Source: Escherichia phage ECML-1. Taken from it: a DNA stretch of 64,000 nt. Under the pieces are notes generated by a model. That model ran no database searches, was not told where the DNA came from, and worked only from the letters and a program-made list of their open reading frames with translations. Location: sequence record OL631478.1, one strand, 5' to 3'. This document shows positions 1,480 through 63,556 of the stretch, piece by piece (the first letter of the stretch is position 1; each line of letters opens with the position of its first letter). A program made the translations under genes and the position numbers.

Positions 1480-1809
1480 TTAATCTGCCAACCTTAAATT
1501 GAAATTAACACCAAATTTTTCACATACTTCCAACATATACTCAAGGGAGACGTTACCAGTGAGATGGATTATGTTGGATACACGAGCCTGAGAGATACCA
1601 CAAATTTTAGCAACTTGCTCTTGAGAAAGACCTCTGGATTTAATCTCTCTCTTAAAACGATGTGCAACGAAGTCTCTCATTTCGTCTACATCCATTGGAC
1701 AAATATAACTCTCCATTTCAGCCTCTCTGTCAGCCTCCCAATCATCTTGTGGAGCATAAGGGTCAAAAACCTCATTCATCTTTCTTCTTCCGTTTTCGTG
1801 AAGTGTCAA
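1480..1809 (-). CDS. helix-turn-helix DNA-binding protein
   Basis: 109 aa; segment LSQEQVAKICGISQARVSNIIH resembles an XRE-type HTH. Confidence 0.45.
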   Translation of the reverse strand: MTLHENGRRKMNEVFDPYAPQDDWEADREAEMESYICPMDVDEMRDFVAHRFKREIKSRGLSQEQVAKICGISQARVSNIIHLTGNVSLEYMLEVCEKFGVNFNLRLAD

Positions 1810-6334: not shown

Positions 6335-6395
6335 ATAACCTCCTATACAAGATACAGTATAAGGTACTCTTCCATGAGCACCTTGTCAACACTAA

Positions 6396-9095: not shown

Positions 9096-9154
9096 TTTTA
9101 CTCCCTCTAAAATCATTAACCTCATACATTACTGCAAAAAATTATAAAAAGCAA

Positions 9155-9178
9155 GTTGACAATGCACTTGACAAGGTG
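9155..9178. promoter_or_regulatory. conserved divergent-junction motif gttgacaatgcacttgacaaggtg (two tandem TTGACA boxes)
   Basis: Near-identical copy at 55625..55648, the other divergent junction; a perfect TATAAT on the minus strand lies at 9141..9146. Confidence 0.45.
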
Positions 9179-9352
9179 TTAATCTTTGCGAAGTGGGTTT
9201 TTACTTAAAAGGTTACTTAACAGTTTAACTATACAGATACTTTAAAACTCTTAAAAGATTATTTAATAGCTTTTAAAAAGCTTTAAAGTATAACGTATAG
9301 AATACGTTAAGATAAAAGATTAAAACTTAATAGTTACTTAAAAGAGGCTTAC

Positions 9353-9775
9353 ATGCAGAAAATGTTTGTTCACCCAGACATAGCTGACTTTGTTAGAGCT
9401 TTGCAGAAGTTGGAAGAACTTGACATTGCTGCTCAACGGGAATATGCTCACCATCACAGGAGAATGGTTGATATACAACATGAAATAGAGTTGTCTGAAA
9501 ACTATGAAGATGACTTAAAATGCTCTGTATTTGAGCATATGAAAGATGTTGCTACAGCTAGACGTAAAGCCAAAGACACAGTTGCTTTACTAGATTCTCT
9601 TAAAAAGAGGTTGCAAAGTGGTACAGACCTGTGTAATCTAGCATCACTGATTAACGATGTCGAAACTTCTTGGGATAGACACTACTATCCACGTTCTGAA
9701 AAGACACTTGACTTTTCTTCATCAGAAAACTTAAAATGTTCTAGAAAGAAACTTAACCAACTGAGAGAGAAATAA
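9353..9775 (+). CDS. hypothetical protein
   Basis: 140 aa ORF, first gene of the rightward block. Confidence 0.5.
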   Translation: MQKMFVHPDIADFVRALQKLEELDIAAQREYAHHHRRMVDIQHEIELSENYEDDLKCSVFEHMKDVATARRKAKDTVALLDSLKKRLQSGTDLCNLASLINDVETSWDRHYYPRSEKTLDFSSSENLKCSRKKLNQLREK

Positions 9776-21203: not shown

Positions 21204-22273
21204 TTAACCAGCACCCAATCTTTTTAGGTGGCGAGAGAAAAACTTTTGACTCACTTAACAAGCACTACCCAAAAATCTTTGAACTTTATAAACAACAAAA
21301 AGCACAAGATTGGTCAGAAGATGAGTTCCCTTTTGAACAATCACGTCTTGATTTTGAGAGTGTCCCAGCATCAATGTCAGGTGTAATGCTTGAGATTCTT
21401 AAGTGGCAATGGGAAGCGGATACTCAAGTTGCTAAGAGCTTGGCATTTGCCTTTGCACCATTTATCTCTGATGACATCTATGCAACTGCAATTATGAAGC
21501 AGTCTGAGATTGAAAACCTACATGCTCTTACTTACTCAGAGATTGTAAGGCAATGTATTAAAAACCCTGAAACAATCTTAGATGAGATTAACCAGAATGT
21601 TGCTGTGCAAGACCGATTAAAAACTGTGAATCGTGTTCTTGAAGAATTACTGGATGAAGGCATAAACTATCGTCTCAGTTATGTGCGTGACTCACTTCTG
21701 GACAAAGACCCATTACACTTCCATAAAGTGATTCTAAAAGGTCTATTTGCAGTGACTGCACTTGAAGGCATTTCCTTCATGGCATCCTTTGCATGTACCT
21801 TTGCACTTGATGCTCAGGATAAATTTCAGGGTATTGCTCAAGCTGTCCAGAAAATTATGCTTGATGAAATCCTTCACACCAAGATTGATATTGAAGTTTT
21901 AAAAGAAACTTTAAGAGATGATGAGTGGCAGAAAGCTTTTCAACAAATTCTTCCAGAGATTAAAGTAATCTTAGATGAAGTAGTTGAAAGTGAAGAGAAA
22001 TGGTCGTATTATATCTTCTCCGAAGGACGTGCTGTAGTTGGCTTAAATACAAAACTTCTTCATGAGTGGGTTTACTATAATGCTGCCCCACTGTATGATA
22101 TGTTTGGCATTCCCAGAGATTTTGTAGCTCCTAAAGAACCACCTTTGAAGTATATGATTAAGAAGATGGAAATTGATAAAGAGCAGAATGCTAATCAGGA
22201 GCAACAGAACGGTGCGTACCTGTTGAATACTGTTGTAGATGATTTGAATAGTGGATTTTTAGAGGTTCCTTAA
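21200..22273 (+). CDS. nrdB: ribonucleotide reductase class Ia small subunit
   Basis: Start at MINQHPIF with AAAGGAGAA Shine-Dalgarno (ORF-track start at 21140 is probably too far upstream); position after nrdA. Confidence 0.8.
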   Translation: MINQHPIFLGGERKTFDSLNKHYPKIFELYKQQKAQDWSEDEFPFEQSRLDFESVPASMSGVMLEILKWQWEADTQVAKSLAFAFAPFISDDIYATAIMKQSEIENLHALTYSEIVRQCIKNPETILDEINQNVAVQDRLKTVNRVLEELLDEGINYRLSYVRDSLLDKDPLHFHKVILKGLFAVTALEGISFMASFACTFALDAQDKFQGIAQAVQKIMLDEILHTKIDIEVLKETLRDDEWQKAFQQILPEIKVILDEVVESEEKWSYYIFSEGRAVVGLNTKLLHEWVYYNAAPLYDMFGIPRDFVAPKEPPLKYMIKKMEIDKEQNANQEQQNGAYLLNTVVDDLNSGFLEVP

Positions 22274-24907: not shown

Positions 24908-24916
24908 AACTTGACA

Positions 24917-24956
24917 AGGTGATGTGGGTCTTGATAGGCTTGCATCACCTTTTTTA
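24917..24956 (+). terminator. intrinsic terminator
   Basis: aaggtgatg...catcacctt hairpin followed by ttttt. Confidence 0.6.
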
Positions 24957-34104: not shown

Positions 34105-34183
34105 AGTGTTTGACAAGGGGCTTCAAAGCCCCTTAGAATAGCCTCACAAATTGATTGATTAACTAACAAGAGAGAGTAATAAG

Positions 34184-41683: not shown

Positions 41684-42009
41684 TGACTGGTATCACTGCA
41701 ATCATTGCCATTTTCGCGCTATATAAGGCATATAAAGCCTATAATCTGGCAAGTAAGGCAATCACACAACAGGTTAATAATAACCTTGTAATGAGCTTTC
41801 TAGAGCGTTTAAGTGATGAACAATTAAAACGGCTAGAAATGAGCTTTAGATTCAGGGCGAGAACTTATCAAATCAGTGACATTTTCAAAGATAATTTTCA
41901 ATTAGTCGATGATTATAATTCTCTGATAAATGCTTTAAATATTAGTGACTTAAAAGATTATCACGCTGTAATTGTTCAAGAATTGAGCAAACGAAAACAA
42001 AACTGTTGA
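41677..42009 (+). CDS. hypothetical membrane protein
   Basis: 110 aa; N-terminal hydrophobic segment MLMTGITAIIAIFALY; overlaps the upstream gene by 7 nt; no cassette. Confidence 0.45.
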   Translation: MLMTGITAIIAIFALYKAYKAYNLASKAITQQVNNNLVMSFLERLSDEQLKRLEMSFRFRARTYQISDIFKDNFQLVDDYNSLINALNISDLKDYHAVIVQELSKRKQNC

Positions 42010-42098
42010 CACTGATTTTTAGATAGATTAAATTACACATCAACGGGGAGGCAATAACCTCCCTACTAAATAAAGTCCTTAAACTAGGAGATTCAAAA
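42006..42098 (+). promoter_or_regulatory. type-1 cassette with promoter (TTGACA-17-TAAATT), stem-loop and leader
   Basis: TTGACA at 42006, TAAATT at 42029, hairpin gggagg-caataa-cctccc, then the conserved leader. Confidence 0.6.
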
Positions 42099-42871: not shown

Positions 42872-42966
42872 TTGACACTGGTTTTTAGATAGATTAAATT
42901 ACACATCAACGGGGAGGGAATGACCTTCCCCACTAAGTAAAGTCCTTAAACTAGGAGATTCAAAAA
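42872..42966 (+). promoter_or_regulatory. type-1 cassette with promoter (TTGACA-17-TAAATT)
   Basis: TTGACA at 42872, TAAATT at 42895, hairpin 42911-42931, then the conserved leader. Confidence 0.6.
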
Positions 42967-44433: not shown

Positions 44434-44524
44434 ACAAGCCCGATAAAAGTCTGTAAATTGTCAATCAACGGGGAGGGAATGACCTTCCCCACTAAGTAAA
44501 GTCCTTAAACTAGGAGATTCAAAA
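44431..44524 (+). promoter_or_regulatory. type-1 cassette with promoter (TAGACA-17-TAAATT)
   Basis: Hairpin ggggagggaatgaccttcccc at 44470-44490, then the conserved leader. Confidence 0.55.
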
Positions 44525-44866: not shown

Positions 44867-44996
44867 TCAATAACTTACAAAAAACTTTTAAAAAAAATGT
44901 TGACAATCCCTCTTGACATTGGTAACTTTGTTCGAGGGGGTTTATCTAAAAGGGATTTACTTAAAAGATTCTTTATAGATAAGCTTAAAAAATTGC

Positions 44997-45087
44997 TTGC
45001 AATCAGCTATCAAAACAAGTAAATTACTAATCAACGGGAGGGATGACCTCCCCACTAAATAAAAATCCTTAAACTAGGAGAGTCAAA
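44997..45087 (+). promoter_or_regulatory. type-1 cassette with promoter (TTGCAA-17-TAAATT)
   Basis: Variant hairpin gggagg-gatga-cctcccc and conserved leader. Confidence 0.5.
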
Positions 45088-46257: not shown

Positions 46258-46319
46258 TCGACGCAGCGGGGCTAAATAGCCCCAGATACCTGAAAAGCTC
46301 CTTCTCATAGGGGCTTTTT

Positions 46320-47860
46320 TACGTCTATGTAATAGCCTCTATACAACCCTTTCCCTTTCCTTTCCAGAATCTATCCCAGACCTTAAAAGCAATAACTCTA
46401 TAGTCTACTCTATAACCTCTTATCAAATCAACTTAAATAAAAGCCAATAACCCCAGAAAGGGGATGGCCCATTTAAACGCTCTATAAAGCTCTATAACAG
46501 CCTTATCAACCTAACTTAAGGGATTGCATTACCTCACCCTTAAAAGCCCTTTATAAAGCTTCCCAGAGACTTAAAAGAATCTTATAAGGGTGTAAGCTTT
46601 ATCATCTCGTTAGTATTCTTGTGAATATCTAAAAAGGGCTTGTTAGTGTCTTAAAAGTATGTTATAGGGGCTATAAAGTTACTTTGAAGTTACGTAAAAG
46701 TTACGTAAATGCTAGCCCCCTTAACATTTTCTTAACAATTTCTTAACAAACCCTACATAGTTATGCTTTTAAGGCACTTGTTAGCAACTTGTTAGCCCCT
46801 TGTTAAATCTCTGTTAAGACCACGTAAAAACCTTGTAAGAGTCTTTGACATAGCCTTTAAAGCCCCTGTAAAGCCTTATAAAGAGGTATCTGTACAGTTG
46901 GGGTGTAATTACTAGGAAGAGGCTTAAAAGAGCTTACAAGGAGCTATAGAGAGCTTTTAAAAGGTATGTTTAGAGAATCACTAAGAGGGAAAGGGAACGA
47001 TAAGAAAAGAGTAGTGACCATGTTAATAGCTTGTTAAAAAGATTAAACACTTGTTAGGAACTTGTTAATTATCTTAACAAAATAACTCTTAAAAATTAAC
47101 TTGTTAGCTCTTGTTAGTCATCTGTTAAGACTCTGTAAAGACCATGTATTGACTGTTAAGAACTTGTTACAGCCTTGTTAGTTATGTTAAGAATCTGTTA
47201 AGACCTCTGAAGAGATGTTAAGAGCTTGAGAGAGTTGTTAAGAGATTGTTAAGGATATTTTAAAATTTTGCAAAGTACTTGTAAGGGAGTTGTTAAGGGC
47301 TACCAAGTAGATATACATCTCCTACAGATATTTTTCAGTTCCTTCAAAGACCCTAAAAAATGACTTGATAGTCCTATTTTATAAAAATTTTAAAAATCTG
47401 AATAATTACCTATACAGTCTTTCTAAAATACAGGTAATAACAGGCTTATAAGATACCTTGTTAGTACCGTGTTAGACCTTGTGAGATAAGGTCTGTGAAG
47501 ACATTCCTGTTAAGTTTGTTAAAACAGTCTATATAGAGGCTTAGTAATACCTAGTGAACACCTATAGAGAGTATCATAGCTGACATAGAGATTAAGAGGT
47601 GTATAGGAGCTTCTAAGAGGATGTAGAAAGATGGTTAAGGTGATTGTATAGGTTGTTAAGAAGGCTTGTTAGAAGAGTGTTTAGATGGCTATTTAGAAGG
47701 GCTATACAGAGGGCTATTAAGACCACTAGATAGTTACTAAGATACTATATAGTACTATATAACTATATAGAGAGTAAGATTAAGAAGGTTGTTAAGAAGG
47801 ATAGATATTTTATTCACATATGATGGTGACCCAGAGGTTGGGACAACCGATAAAATTTTA
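46320..47860. repeat. ORF-free 1.5 kb region with a dense array of short TGTTA(A/G)G-type iterons
   Basis: No ORF of 60 aa or more on any frame; more than 30 occurrences of cttgttag/ctgttaag/ttgttaag-like motifs between about 46700 and 47700; plus actatatag direct repeats at 47740-47770. Confidence 0.6.
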
Positions 47861-47867
47861 TAAAAAT

Positions 47868-47893
47868 TAAAAAGCCCCCAATTAAGGAGGCTC
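47868..47893 (-). terminator. intrinsic terminator (minus strand)
   Basis: Reverse complement reads agcctcc-ttaatt-gggggct followed by ttttt; same hairpin family as the plus-strand terminator at 10595. Confidence 0.6.
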
Positions 47894-47903
47894 TTAAGAT
47901 ATT

Positions 47904-55383: not shown

Positions 55384-55547
55384 AGATAATCCTCTTGTCT
55401 TCTGTAATTTTGAAAGAACAGGTACAGACCAATTTCAGAGGATGAATAGTAGATTAACTCTACCCTTTTTGATTCCTTACGGTGATTGGTATTCTTACCT
55501 TTCTTCGGTTTATTTGATTTTCTCATTAAGTCTCCTTTGTATAACAA
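55365..55547 (-). CDS. small basic protein
   Basis: 60 aa with KPKKGKNTNHRKESKR. Confidence 0.35.
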   Translation of the reverse strand: MLYKGDLMRKSNKPKKGKNTNHRKESKRVELIYYSSSEIGLYLFFQNYRRQEDYLCVVPN

Positions 55548-55624
55548 GGCAGACCTACAGCTTTAAGTAAGATGGTACAGTAATCCATACAACAAGTCAA
55601 GAACTATTGCAAGTTAAAAAAGTT

Positions 55625-55648
55625 GTTGACAAAGTACTTGACAAGGTG
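55625..55648. promoter_or_regulatory. conserved divergent-junction motif gttgacaaagtacttgacaaggtg
   Basis: Second copy of the 24 nt element seen at 9155..9178; lies between divergently transcribed blocks. Confidence 0.45.
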
Positions 55649-55775
55649 TAGGCTTATAAATACTTAGAAGATAACTTAAAAGGTTCCTCTAAAAAGGCTA
55701 TTTAAACAGATATCTTTCTGGATATCTATCTTTTATCTTAAAAGCCTTTTAAGAGGTCTTATAAGAGGCATACCA

Positions 55776-56147
55776 ATGAAAAACAGAACAAACAAAGGCC
55801 AGTTTAAAAAAGGCCAGTCTGGAAACCCATCTGGAAGACCAAAAGGCTCTCGTAACAAAAGCTCACTTGTAAAAGCTCAACTGACCATTGATAATTCTGC
55901 TGAGTTTGCTGCAAAGTTGTTTGAGGCGGTTGTTACAAGGGATGCTGCTAAGCTTGCAGAGTTCGGTTTGACGACTGACGATGTAAACCTGAAGTCGATG
56001 ATGGAGGCTGGTAAAACCATCATGACTCACTCAGCAGGTGAGATGAAAGCGATTGCAGCAGACACTAAGAAGACCCCTGATAATGGTGGTCAGTCTCAGA
56101 CAGATAACAAACCAACGTTCTCTGCTGTAGCGACTCTCAAAAAATAA
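55776..56147 (+). CDS. hypothetical protein
   Basis: 123 aa; N-terminal KGQSGNPSGRPKGSRNK basic motif. Confidence 0.5.
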   Translation: MKNRTNKGQFKKGQSGNPSGRPKGSRNKSSLVKAQLTIDNSAEFAAKLFEAVVTRDAAKLAEFGLTTDDVNLKSMMEAGKTIMTHSAGEMKAIAADTKKTPDNGGQSQTDNKPTFSAVATLKK

Positions 56148-56228
56148 TTTTAAAAGGTGTTGACAGACTCTACAAAGTTGCTCTAAAGTCTGTCACATCA
56201 ACAAACAAATGAGAGAAGAGAGTAAAAT

Positions 56229-62647: not shown

Positions 62648-63382
62648 ATGAAAGAGATGACAGAACAAGGTAAGGAGATTTTTAATCTCTTAAAAACCGG
62701 TAAAGGGTTCTCTAACCCACTGATTACCGGTGCAGCAGTTCTCGGTGGAACCGTAGCTGCTTCTACATCACTTGTAAGCTCTATTAGTTCTGTAACAGAC
62801 CCTACAATGAAGGAGAAACTTGTTGCTGCTGGACTTACAACAGTCCTTCTAAACAGCTTTACAACAAGCCTTACAAGCACTACAGCAACTACTAAAACTC
62901 TGACAGACTACGGTCAAAAGTCTATTGATGAGTTTTCATCACGTATGCAGGTAGCAAAGGGGTATTCCAATGTTATGGGTGCAGCAGGAGAACAAGTTGG
63001 TTGTACACCATTCAGTGGTATCATGGGTGTTGCTACAGAGTATGGTCAAAAAGCTATTGACATGATGAACAGTACACTAGATAGTGTTAATGGTGTGTTA
63101 AGTGACTTACAAGATGCTATTGATAAGGGTCTTGATACTGTTTCTGATTTAGCTAACCAAGCTGTCAGTAAGATTAATGAAGGTATCTCAAAGATTACAG
63201 CTTATGCAGATGAAGTTGTGCAGATGATTGAAGAAGAAGCTGCCCTTATTGCAGAGTACCTTAAAACGAATATCAATGGGTTCTTAGCAGGTATCTTACC
63301 AGACTGGTTTGATGATGCTTGTAAAACTGGTGTGATTGACACTATTGCAACACCAGAAATGAAGAACGCATTACAGAAATAA
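62648..63382 (+). CDS. hypothetical protein (Ser/Thr/Ala-rich)
   Basis: Start moved to the internal Met (MKEMTEQ) because the ORF-track start lies inside tRNA-Phe; 244 aa. Confidence 0.45.
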   Translation: MKEMTEQGKEIFNLLKTGKGFSNPLITGAAVLGGTVAASTSLVSSISSVTDPTMKEKLVAAGLTTVLLNSFTTSLTSTTATTKTLTDYGQKSIDEFSSRMQVAKGYSNVMGAAGEQVGCTPFSGIMGVATEYGQKAIDMMNSTLDSVNGVLSDLQDAIDKGLDTVSDLANQAVSKINEGISKITAYADEVVQMIEEEAALIAEYLKTNINGFLAGILPDWFDDACKTGVIDTIATPEMKNALQK

Positions 63383-63384
63383 TG

Positions 63385-63476
63385 GAAGATTAACCCTAAA
63401 AGGTAAGGGAGCAGTTTGCTAAACTGCCAGTAGCTGAGAAATCGGTGTACCAGTTCAAGTCTGGTATCTTCCTCCA
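63385..63476 (+). tRNA. tRNA-Ser(GCT)
   Basis: Type II, acceptor ggaagat/atcttcc, anticodon arm gcagt-ttgctaa-actgc, long variable arm, CCA encoded. Confidence 0.6.
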
Positions 63477-63480
63477 ATTT

Positions 63481-63556
63481 GAATCCGTGACAGAAATGGC
63501 TATGTGCCTGTCTGCAAAACAGGTTTATAAGGGTTCGAGTCCCTTCGGATTCTCCA
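63481..63556 (+). tRNA. tRNA-Cys(GCA)
   Basis: Acceptor gaatccg/cggattc, anticodon arm cctgt-ctgcaaa-acagg, T-arm aaggg-ttcgagt-ccctt, CCA encoded. Confidence 0.65.

Follow-up and report, generated by a model that had tools for sequence, protein, structure and literature searches.

A conserved doubled TTGACA box in predicted host-type promoters at the gene-block junctions of a Felix O1-like phage

Introduction

Phage promoters that are read by the unmodified RNA polymerase of the host with its sigma-70 factor include PL and PR of lambda, A1-A3 of T7 and the early promoters of T4. In this study, we analysed a doubled TTGACA motif in a 64,000-nt stretch of the genome of Escherichia phage ECML-1 (sequence record OL631478.1; this whole stretch is called the window hereafter), where it lies at points of divergence between leftward and rightward gene blocks. 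The sites that carry the motif resemble canonical sigma-70 promoters in their TTGACA -35 hexamer, their 17-18 nt spacer, a -10 hexamer with A2 and T6, and their location at the heads of gene blocks. They differ from them in that the spacer contains a second perfect TTGACA, the -10 is reduced to TAnnnT and the leader is very long.

A -35-type hexamer located close to a -10-type element is also found at lambda PR', where TTGACT, right upstream of a sequence that resembles a -10, is read by region 4 of sigma-70 after Q has released that region from the beta flap. The sites of this work may be likened to it, as they also place a -35-type hexamer a few bp from a -10-type element. However, the PR' element needs Q and functions past initiation, in an elongation complex that has paused, whereas neither a pause element nor a Q-like factor is shown here.

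The middle promoters of T4, which rely on sigma appropriation by AsiA and MotA, similarly combine a host-type -10 with an extra upstream phage element, and the phage has no polymerase of its own. In these promoters, a MotA box of sequence (a/t)(a/t)(a/t)TGCTTtA, positioned 12 +/- 1 bp from the -10, replaces the -35, and about half of them carry a TGn element (PMC2988021). A MotA-type site was rejected for our motif because neither its geometry nor its sequence fits: the box is TTGACA, 4-6 bp separate it from the -10, and it coexists with a perfect -35. As for the promoters activated by CII in lambda and P22, they harbour a TTGC-N6-TTGC direct repeat around the -35 region (PMC2629481). The likeness consists of a short direct repeat beginning with TTG, with a 6-nt gap, over the -35 region of a promoter that has a weak element. 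Nevertheless, the CII repeats are 4 bp long, have a 10-bp period and flank a poor -35, whereas the repeats described here are 6 bp long, have a 12-13 bp period and comprise a perfect -35. Also unlike CII-type sites, the second repeat is downstream of the -35 and the phage is virulent. A lambda CII-type site was thus rejected as well for its misfit in geometry and sequence, and no CII homologue was seen among the window proteins that were scanned.

Felix O1 is a classical phage in diagnostics and biocontrol. The window shares 98-99% identity with many Felixounavirus genomes (SP22, ASO1A, wV8), and on this comparison it is itself a Felixounavirus genome, of the Felix O1-like myophage group with Escherichia and Salmonella hosts. 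Whichard et al. (2010) described four 'transcriptons' in Felix O1, which diverge exactly at the junctions between open reading frames (ORFs) 96 and 97 and between ORFs 40 and 41, and they called the latter divergence odd (PMC3185647). Their paper is the source of the putative promoter P41, TTGACA(N15)TATAGG, apart from which no host-promoter homology was reported in either of the two intergenic regions (PMC3185647). According to the same work, Felix O1 encodes neither an RNA polymerase nor any apparent protein that changes the promoter specificity of the host polymerase, and the temporal control of its transcription is not understood (PMC3185647).

The positions that we discuss are therefore already known as putative promoters, through P41 in the Felix O1 paper (PMC3185647) and through 'promoter' features in the ASO1A GenBank record MZ726791, in which all three double sites described below are annotated. 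Although these annotations point to the same places, they do not note the doubling of the hexamer, its conservation, the existence of a third copy or the link with the junctions. In the literature that we searched, we found no description of any of these features, nor of an association of doubled -35 hexamers with long, word-rich leaders.

Results

Occurrence of the doubled motif

Our analyses suggest that a host sigma-70 promoter exists in two paralogous copies, that the 24-nt motif is its upstream half and that the second TTGACA of the motif is a cis-element under selection. We assign a probability of roughly 65% to this reading, which is based on sequence comparisons.

As announced in the preliminary description of the window, GTTGACAAnGnACTTGACAAGGTG is found exactly at 9155-9178 and at 55625-55648, on the + strand in both cases. 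Copy 1 reads GTTGACAATGCACTTGACAAGGTG and copy 2 reads GTTGACAAAGTACTTGACAAGGTG, with identity at 22 of 24 positions. Extending the first copy upstream to 9141, as was done initially, merely adds an A/T-rich flank. With up to three mismatches allowed, the two copies were the sole matches in the window, and none was obtained in 100 dinucleotide-preserving shuffles (0 expected). The strands of the flanking ORFs confirm that both copies are located where leftward and rightward gene blocks diverge. Copy 1 is found between the DNA polymerase gene (-) and an ORF at 9353-9775 (+), which corresponds to the ORF96/ORF97 junction of Felix O1, and copy 2 between an ORF at 55547 (-) and a DUF5681 gene at 55776-56147 (+), which corresponds to the ORF40/ORF41 junction.

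The motif had been viewed as a feature of these two junctions. It is indeed present at both, but its extent is larger, as a third double copy at 44900-44918 had been overlooked and the feature is actually a promoter design shared by three sites. In the window, TTGACA-N6/7-TTGACA thus occurs three times, versus 0.04 expected. The complete genome of the close relative ASO1A (87.6 kb) contains the same three perfect double sites and no other, and Felix O1 itself carries all three.

Anatomy of the predicted promoters

The idea of a shared promoter architecture holds at the level of sequence and of its conservation: before each rightward block, in the right orientation, there are a -35 that matches the consensus, a spacer of 17-18 nt and a TAnnnT that is conserved. 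The first TTGACA would serve as the -35, followed after the spacer by TG and a minimal TAnnnT -10. At site 1, the putative promoter P97 (9156-9185, +) is at the head of the rightward block of replication and nucleotide metabolism genes. Its predicted -35 (9156..9161) is 18 nt upstream of TAATCT, which is preceded by TGt to form an extended -10 (9177..9185), and the second TTGACA (9168..9173) lies within the spacer, at about -23 to -18. At site 2, the predicted -35 of P41 (55626..55631, +) is 17 nt away from the TAnnnT, the second TTGACA (55638..55643) is again in the spacer, and TG and TAGGCT follow (55647..55654). P41 (55626-55654) heads a rightward block that begins with the DUF5681 gene and continues with the gene of a DUF2828/DUF7788 protein and a tRNA cluster. 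The third double promoter, TTGACA-N7-TTGACA-N4-TAACTT (44900..44928, +), precedes the gene called ORF22 in Felix O1, and its spacer is also 17 nt long.

The first hexamers, at 9156, 55626 and 44900, match TTGACA at 6/6 positions and are invariant in relatives, and the three -10 hexamers, TAATCT, TAGGCT and TAACTT, all have A2 and T6. An A-rich stretch is found upstream of the -35. As for the extended -10, the TG dinucleotide is in register at site 1 (TGtTAATCT), it abuts the hexamer and is therefore one base off at site 2, and site 3 has none. Transcription would start about 7 nt past the -10, near 9192, 55661 and 44935.

The P41 of the Felix O1 paper begins at the first TTGACA of copy 2. At this place (21527-21545 of its record), Felix O1 reads TTGACAAGGTATAGGCT where the window has ...GGTGTAGGCT, such that TG is lost and TATAGG is gained, which explains why P41 was described with a 15-nt spacer.

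The second TTGACA sits 4-6 nt upstream of the -10 and 6-7 nt from the first hexamer. We considered that it might be the -35 of another promoter located 12 nt further down, but in none of the three sites, nor in relatives, is a TAnnnT present 16-18 nt downstream of it. Thus, the second hexamer cannot serve any -10 as a -35, yet it is as strictly conserved as the true -35, which argues that it is a selected cis-element.

Other readings of the motif were also rejected. On the minus strand, a leftward -35 (TTGTCA) gives a loose fit at site 2 only (TTGTCA-N18-AATAGT) and fails at site 1, and better leftward candidates exist just outside the motif (9154->9126 and 55600->55572). A perfect minus-strand TATAAT (9146->9141) has unusable -35 spacings (10 or 22 nt), and neither Michonne nor SUSP2 conserves it. 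A hairpin was discarded, as self-folding of 60-nt segments around the motif is not significant (z = -1.1 and +0.8).

Conservation of the second hexamer

The site 2 footprint was compared in 13 distinct sequences, some of them from Mooglevirus-like and Suspvirus-like contigs, and site 3 in 16 relatives. At site 2, the footprint is TTGACA-N6-TTGACA-N3-TG-TAnnnT, in which the 12 bases of the two hexamers, the TG and the T1, A2 and T6 of the -10 are invariant (13/13). The variable positions are all six linker bases, two of the three bases that follow the second hexamer, and the three inner bases of the -10, giving TAGGCT, TAGCCT, TAAGTT or TAGTGT. At site 1, the 24-nt motif is invariant in 13 distinct relatives but for 3 linker bases, and within the genus variation is confined to the linker. 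The second hexamer is invariant in Felixounavirus, Michonne and SUSP2, and in the latter two phages the site reads TTGACA-N6-TTGACAAGGTG-(g/t)-TA(G/A)TCT. TGnTA(A/G)TCT is thus kept, as exemplified by TGgTAGTCT in Michonne with its T1, A2 and T6. Both hexamers of site 3 are invariant in the relatives, its linker varies, and its -10 is TAACTT, TAATGT or TAGATT.

An ordinary promoter at 56160 was used as a control, with the same loci and the same relatives. Its hexamers are kept, whereas its spacer changes at most positions and in length. Given this drift, the invariance of the second TTGACA is atypical of spacers. Fixed T1, A2 and T6 with free inner bases, at 17-18 nt from the first TTGACA, constitute the signature of a working -10 and designate the first hexamer as the -35. 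The outgroups point in the same direction. In Pectobacterium phage Arno18, the two junctions carry TTGACA-N17-TAGGCT and TTGACA-N18-TACCCT, each with only one TTGACA. In Erwinia phage FIfi106, the ORF96/97 junction has a single TTGACA-N17-TACATT, and the ORF40/41 junction has a degenerate -35, TTACAG, followed by TACACT. The single TTGACA in these outgroups indicates that the first hexamer is the ancestral -35.

In Kolesnikvirus (FIfi106, phiEa21-4 and Prophecy), we found a conserved TTGACA-N6-TTGACA-N5-TAAAGT with a 17-nt spacer at a non-homologous place, so that the doubled design is not confined to one lineage. This double promoter (position 71470 of the FIfi106 record, - strand; about 29435-29470 in L202) points into an ORF-free region rich in TTCTAA words. 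The module is identical among the phages (L202, L206 and L207), and its upstream context differs. A scan of IMG/VR with the pattern TTGACA-N6/7-TTGACA-N4-6-TAnnnT yielded, among the matches listed, mostly contigs outside the related set, and it is uninformative on other phage groups.

These data bear on the possibility that the second TTGACA has no function and is what remains of a tandem duplication (12 bp) in the -35 region that recombination spread among promoters. It would then be one more instance of the dense, overlapping promoter-like signals that are usual around bacterial promoters. Copying between sites is suggested by the 22 of 24 bases, including a non-essential AGGTG, that sites 1 and 2 share, and for the distant relatives one hexamer suffices at each of the two junctions. 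However, the hexamer does not vary among the 13-17 distinct sequences compared per site, over three genera, amid flanking bases that are saturated with changes, and the control spacer drifts freely in the same genomes. Furthermore, the same geometry arose or persisted independently in Kolesnikvirus. We regard a functionless relic as highly improbable.

Candidate readers of the second hexamer

If the second hexamer is a selected cis-element, its simplest reader would be region 4 of sigma-70, or else a factor that mimics or competes with it. This candidate is ranked first because TTGACA is the exact optimum of region 4 and because Kolesnikvirus has the double promoter without the helix-turn-helix (HTH) protein discussed below. 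The second box would then be a non-productive docking register that modulates the capture or the release of RNA polymerase.

The main rival is a phage repressor that binds in tandem. According to this explanation, the motif is an operator in which a phage protein binds both hexamers, covers the promoter between -35 and -18 and exerts joint control over the three promoters, turning them off (or on). Two identical hexamers about one helical turn apart over the RNA polymerase footprint indeed constitute a classical operator layout. In addition, each TTGACAA of sites 1 and 2 has the pseudo-palindromic form TTG-n-CAA, and CTTGACAAG constitutes a palindrome of 9 bp. Nevertheless, the overall arrangement is a direct repeat, with local pseudo-palindromes confined to sites 1 and 2, and the bases that extend the palindrome are not conserved, as site 3 has TTGACAT and relatives have aTTGACAAg or cTTGACAAc. 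The spacing between hexamers also differs between sites (N6 or N7), and a specificity equal to the sigma-70 -35 optimum would be a coincidence, unless the purpose of the protein is to compete with sigma-70.

The candidate binding protein is a Cro/CI-type HTH protein (1480..1809, -; Pfam HTH_3, E = 5e-10; PHROG 'transcriptional regulator'), the sole evident phage transcription-factor candidate among the 10 window proteins that were scanned. Its homologues occur only in the set formed by Felixounavirus, Mooglevirus and Suspvirus, which have doubled junctions; Arno18 and FIfi106, with single hexamers there, have none. This co-occurrence is, however, a single clade-level event, and Kolesnikvirus has its own conserved double promoter without the protein. 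For the latter reason, the HTH_3 protein is kept as a weak candidate only for the reader of the motif, and we deem the operator explanation unlikely. The acidic N-terminal half of this protein gives an unexpected match to PDB entry 8vd6 ('CAP REPEAT', E = 3e-12), which is its best PDB match and is not interpretable.

Predicted structured leaders and the ORF-free region

From the double promoters, transcripts would run into unusually long (115-160 nt), structured, A/U-rich leaders. The distance from the -35 to the start codon is 150-197 nt for the three double promoters versus about 65-95 nt for other promoters of the window. The leaders are A/T-rich and built from words of the CTTAAAAG and CTTAACAG types and from inverted repeats. 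The predicted leader of site 1 (9192..9352, +, about 160 nt from the presumed start) lies in a 9-10 kb bin with 9 word matches, and that of site 2 (55661..55775, +, about 115 nt) forms a long imperfect hairpin. The leader of site 3 (44936..45087, +) has a 5'-proximal 23-bp hairpin and contains CTAAAAGG and CTTAAAAG words. The words are located at 9203-9345, 55674-55753 and 44946-44990, respectively. Compared with shuffled sequences, the predicted RNA folds of sites 2 and 3 are more stable (z = -2.9, with 0/200 shuffles as stable, and z = -3.8), and that of site 1 is marginally so (z = -1.7). The consensus fold of the site 1 leader includes three compensatory pairs, e.g., CTTAAC/GTTAAG versus CTTTAT/ATAAAG, and the site 2 leader has one, CCTCT/AGAGG versus CTTCT/AGAAG.

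The CTTAAAAG word has a strong strand bias in the window, with 21 occurrences on the + strand versus 4 on the - strand. The same family of words fills a 1.6-kb ORF-free stretch (46300-47900) between the convergent ends of + and - gene blocks, where they show a phasing of about 11 nt and their orientation flips near 46.76 kb. Forward CTTAAAAG and CTTAACA words are present up to about 46750, followed to about 47700 by the reverse complements CTTGTTAG, CTGTTAAG and TTGTTAAG, often at 11-nt or 31-nt spacing. Related words of the TCTTAACA, TTAACAG and GAACAG types are found in distant relatives. In Arno18 (with word-rich segments at 31.7-31.9 kb and 70.5-70.8 kb), they are most frequent at both divergent junctions and in the ORF-free region, and in FIfi106 their peak is in the ORF-free region (70.0-71.5 kb). 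A search of the Felix O1 paper with the keywords origin, non-coding and intergenic returned no mention of this region. The Rfam search gave 24 tRNA matches over the window as its only result, with no match in the motif, in any leader or in the ORF-free region. For the 46.3-47.9 kb region, the possibilities include an origin, an array of protein-binding sites and a region of non-coding RNA.

Double-hexamer promoters followed by long A/T-rich leaders of phased words might also be transcription-activated replication origins or primer promoters. The primary origin of T7 consists of tandem promoters and an A/T-rich stretch, and oriF and oriG of T4 of a promoter and a downstream unwinding element. 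The modules may be likened to these origins. The exceptional length of the leaders for this genome, the filling of the ORF-free region with the same phased words and the word peaks of Arno18 and FIfi106 would agree with this explanation, as would the proximity of site 1 to the DNA polymerase gene and the orientation of the Kolesnikvirus double promoter towards an ORF-free iteron region. The case is nonetheless purely circumstantial, and since the turns of the GC skew coincide with those of gene orientation, the skew is uninformative. In addition, the compensatory changes indicate base-paired stems and thus a function at the RNA level, and the leaders finish at the normal ribosome-binding sites of real genes. 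An origin function of the modules appears very unlikely.

Leftward partners, single-box promoters and neighbouring genes

Just outside the motif, each junction has a candidate leftward promoter, so that the junctions would be back-to-back promoter pairs. At site 1, it is TTGCTT-N17-TAATGT (9126..9154, -), facing the DNA polymerase gene, with TAATGT in SUSP2 and TAGGGT in Michonne at the same 17-nt spacing, and a single base separates the two opposed -35 boxes. At site 2, the consensus scan identified TTGACT-N17-TACCAT (55572..55600, -), which is invariant in 13/13 relatives.

Shorter copies of the motif had been noticed at 24912 and 34107. They are present, but with positions about 2 nt off: cTTGACAAGGTG is at 24910-24921 and tTTGACAAGGGG at 34109-34120, and a further exact TTGACAAGGTG occurs on the - strand at 6389-6379. 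These single copies correspond to the -35 boxes of further, ordinary promoters, and two of them lie within hairpins. The first provides a single TTGACAAGGTG as the -35 of TTGACA-N18-TAGGCT (24911..24940, +), which overlaps a terminator hairpin (AAGGTGATG...CATCACCTT and a T-run), and the ASO1A annotation has a terminator at the matching place. The segment 24911-24960 is thus a compact terminator-promoter module, in which the hairpin right after TTGACA doubles as the terminator of the upstream gene and the -10 TAGGCT is in or after the hairpin. The second, another such module with a single TTGACAAGGGG in TTGACA-N18-TAGAAT (34110..34139, +), has a hairpin that fills its spacer; it is located in the rIIA/rIIB gap and is a promoter in the ASO1A annotation. 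The third has a single TTGACAAGGTG in TTGACA-N17-TACCTT (6361..6389, -), downstream of the polymerase gene.

Hairpins also accompany other promoter-like sites. At 42006-42045 and 42872-42911, the 39-bp repeated promoter of the Felix O1 paper, TTGACACTG(A/G)TTTTTAGATAGATTAAATTACACATCAAC, has a GGGGAGG hairpin immediately after it, and opposite-strand TTGACA boxes are found next to similar hairpins at 44464, 45626 and 46015 (-). These sites could correspond to short transcripts or antisense promoters.

As for the genes behind site 2, the DUF5681 protein (55776-56147), encoded by the first of them, has a basic N-terminus, KKGQSGNPSGRPKGSRNK, that contains an AT-hook-like GRP core. It is only a speculation that it binds A/T-rich DNA. 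The gene at 56229-57644 codes for a 471-residue protein with DUF2828 and DUF7788 domains, called 'vWFA protein' in the annotation of some relatives, and directly downstream of it is a cluster with 24 tRNA matches (57810-63553).

Discussion

The double sites appear to be ordinary host-type promoters that carry an unusual extra box under selection. Several observations weigh against this view. The -10 hexamers match TATAAT at just 3/6 positions, and a simple consensus scan calls neither junction, because no hexamer with at least 4/6 matches to TATAAT is present 16-18 nt past either TTGACA. The TG is out of register by one base at site 2 and missing at site 3, and the ASO1A annotators took the second TTGACA as the -35 at site 2. 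The second hexamer is not at a fixed distance, being 4-6 nt from the -10 and 6-7 nt from the first hexamer. We found no transcription-start, transcriptome or in vitro transcription data on Felix O1-like phages in the literature that we searched.

The timing of expression is a further point of the same kind. In Felix O1, the reverse-transcription PCR signals of ORF41 and ORF97 peak at 25 min, and that of ORF22, behind the third copy, at 5 min. These split classes argue against one dedicated temporal class, and the 'early' timing put forward in the preliminary description is not established.

It is tempting to speculate further that the box embedded in the spacer defines an undescribed class of Ounavirinae promoters. 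It would be read by region 4 of sigma-70 in a holoenzyme remodelled by the phage, or by a phage protein that resembles sigma region 4, and it would time or gate transcription into long, iteron-rich leaders or non-coding modules. The modules concerned would include the heads of the two major rightward blocks and the ORF-free iteron region of Kolesnikvirus, and they may couple transcription to the initiation of replication. This more ambitious proposal is a tentative one, and we hold it to be rather unlikely.

Coming back to host-type promoters with a selected extra box, the heads of both major rightward blocks share one conserved design, which consists of a -35, a second invariant box, a minimal -10 and a long structured leader. 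This shared design represents a concrete target, amenable to mutation, for start-site mapping and reporter work. Should the second box have no measurable effect, the promoters would be ordinary ones, and the gain would be a better promoter annotation for more than 250 sequenced relatives. If, on the contrary, sigma-70 region 4 or a mimic of it does read the second box, this box would represent a new way to tune a host-type promoter.

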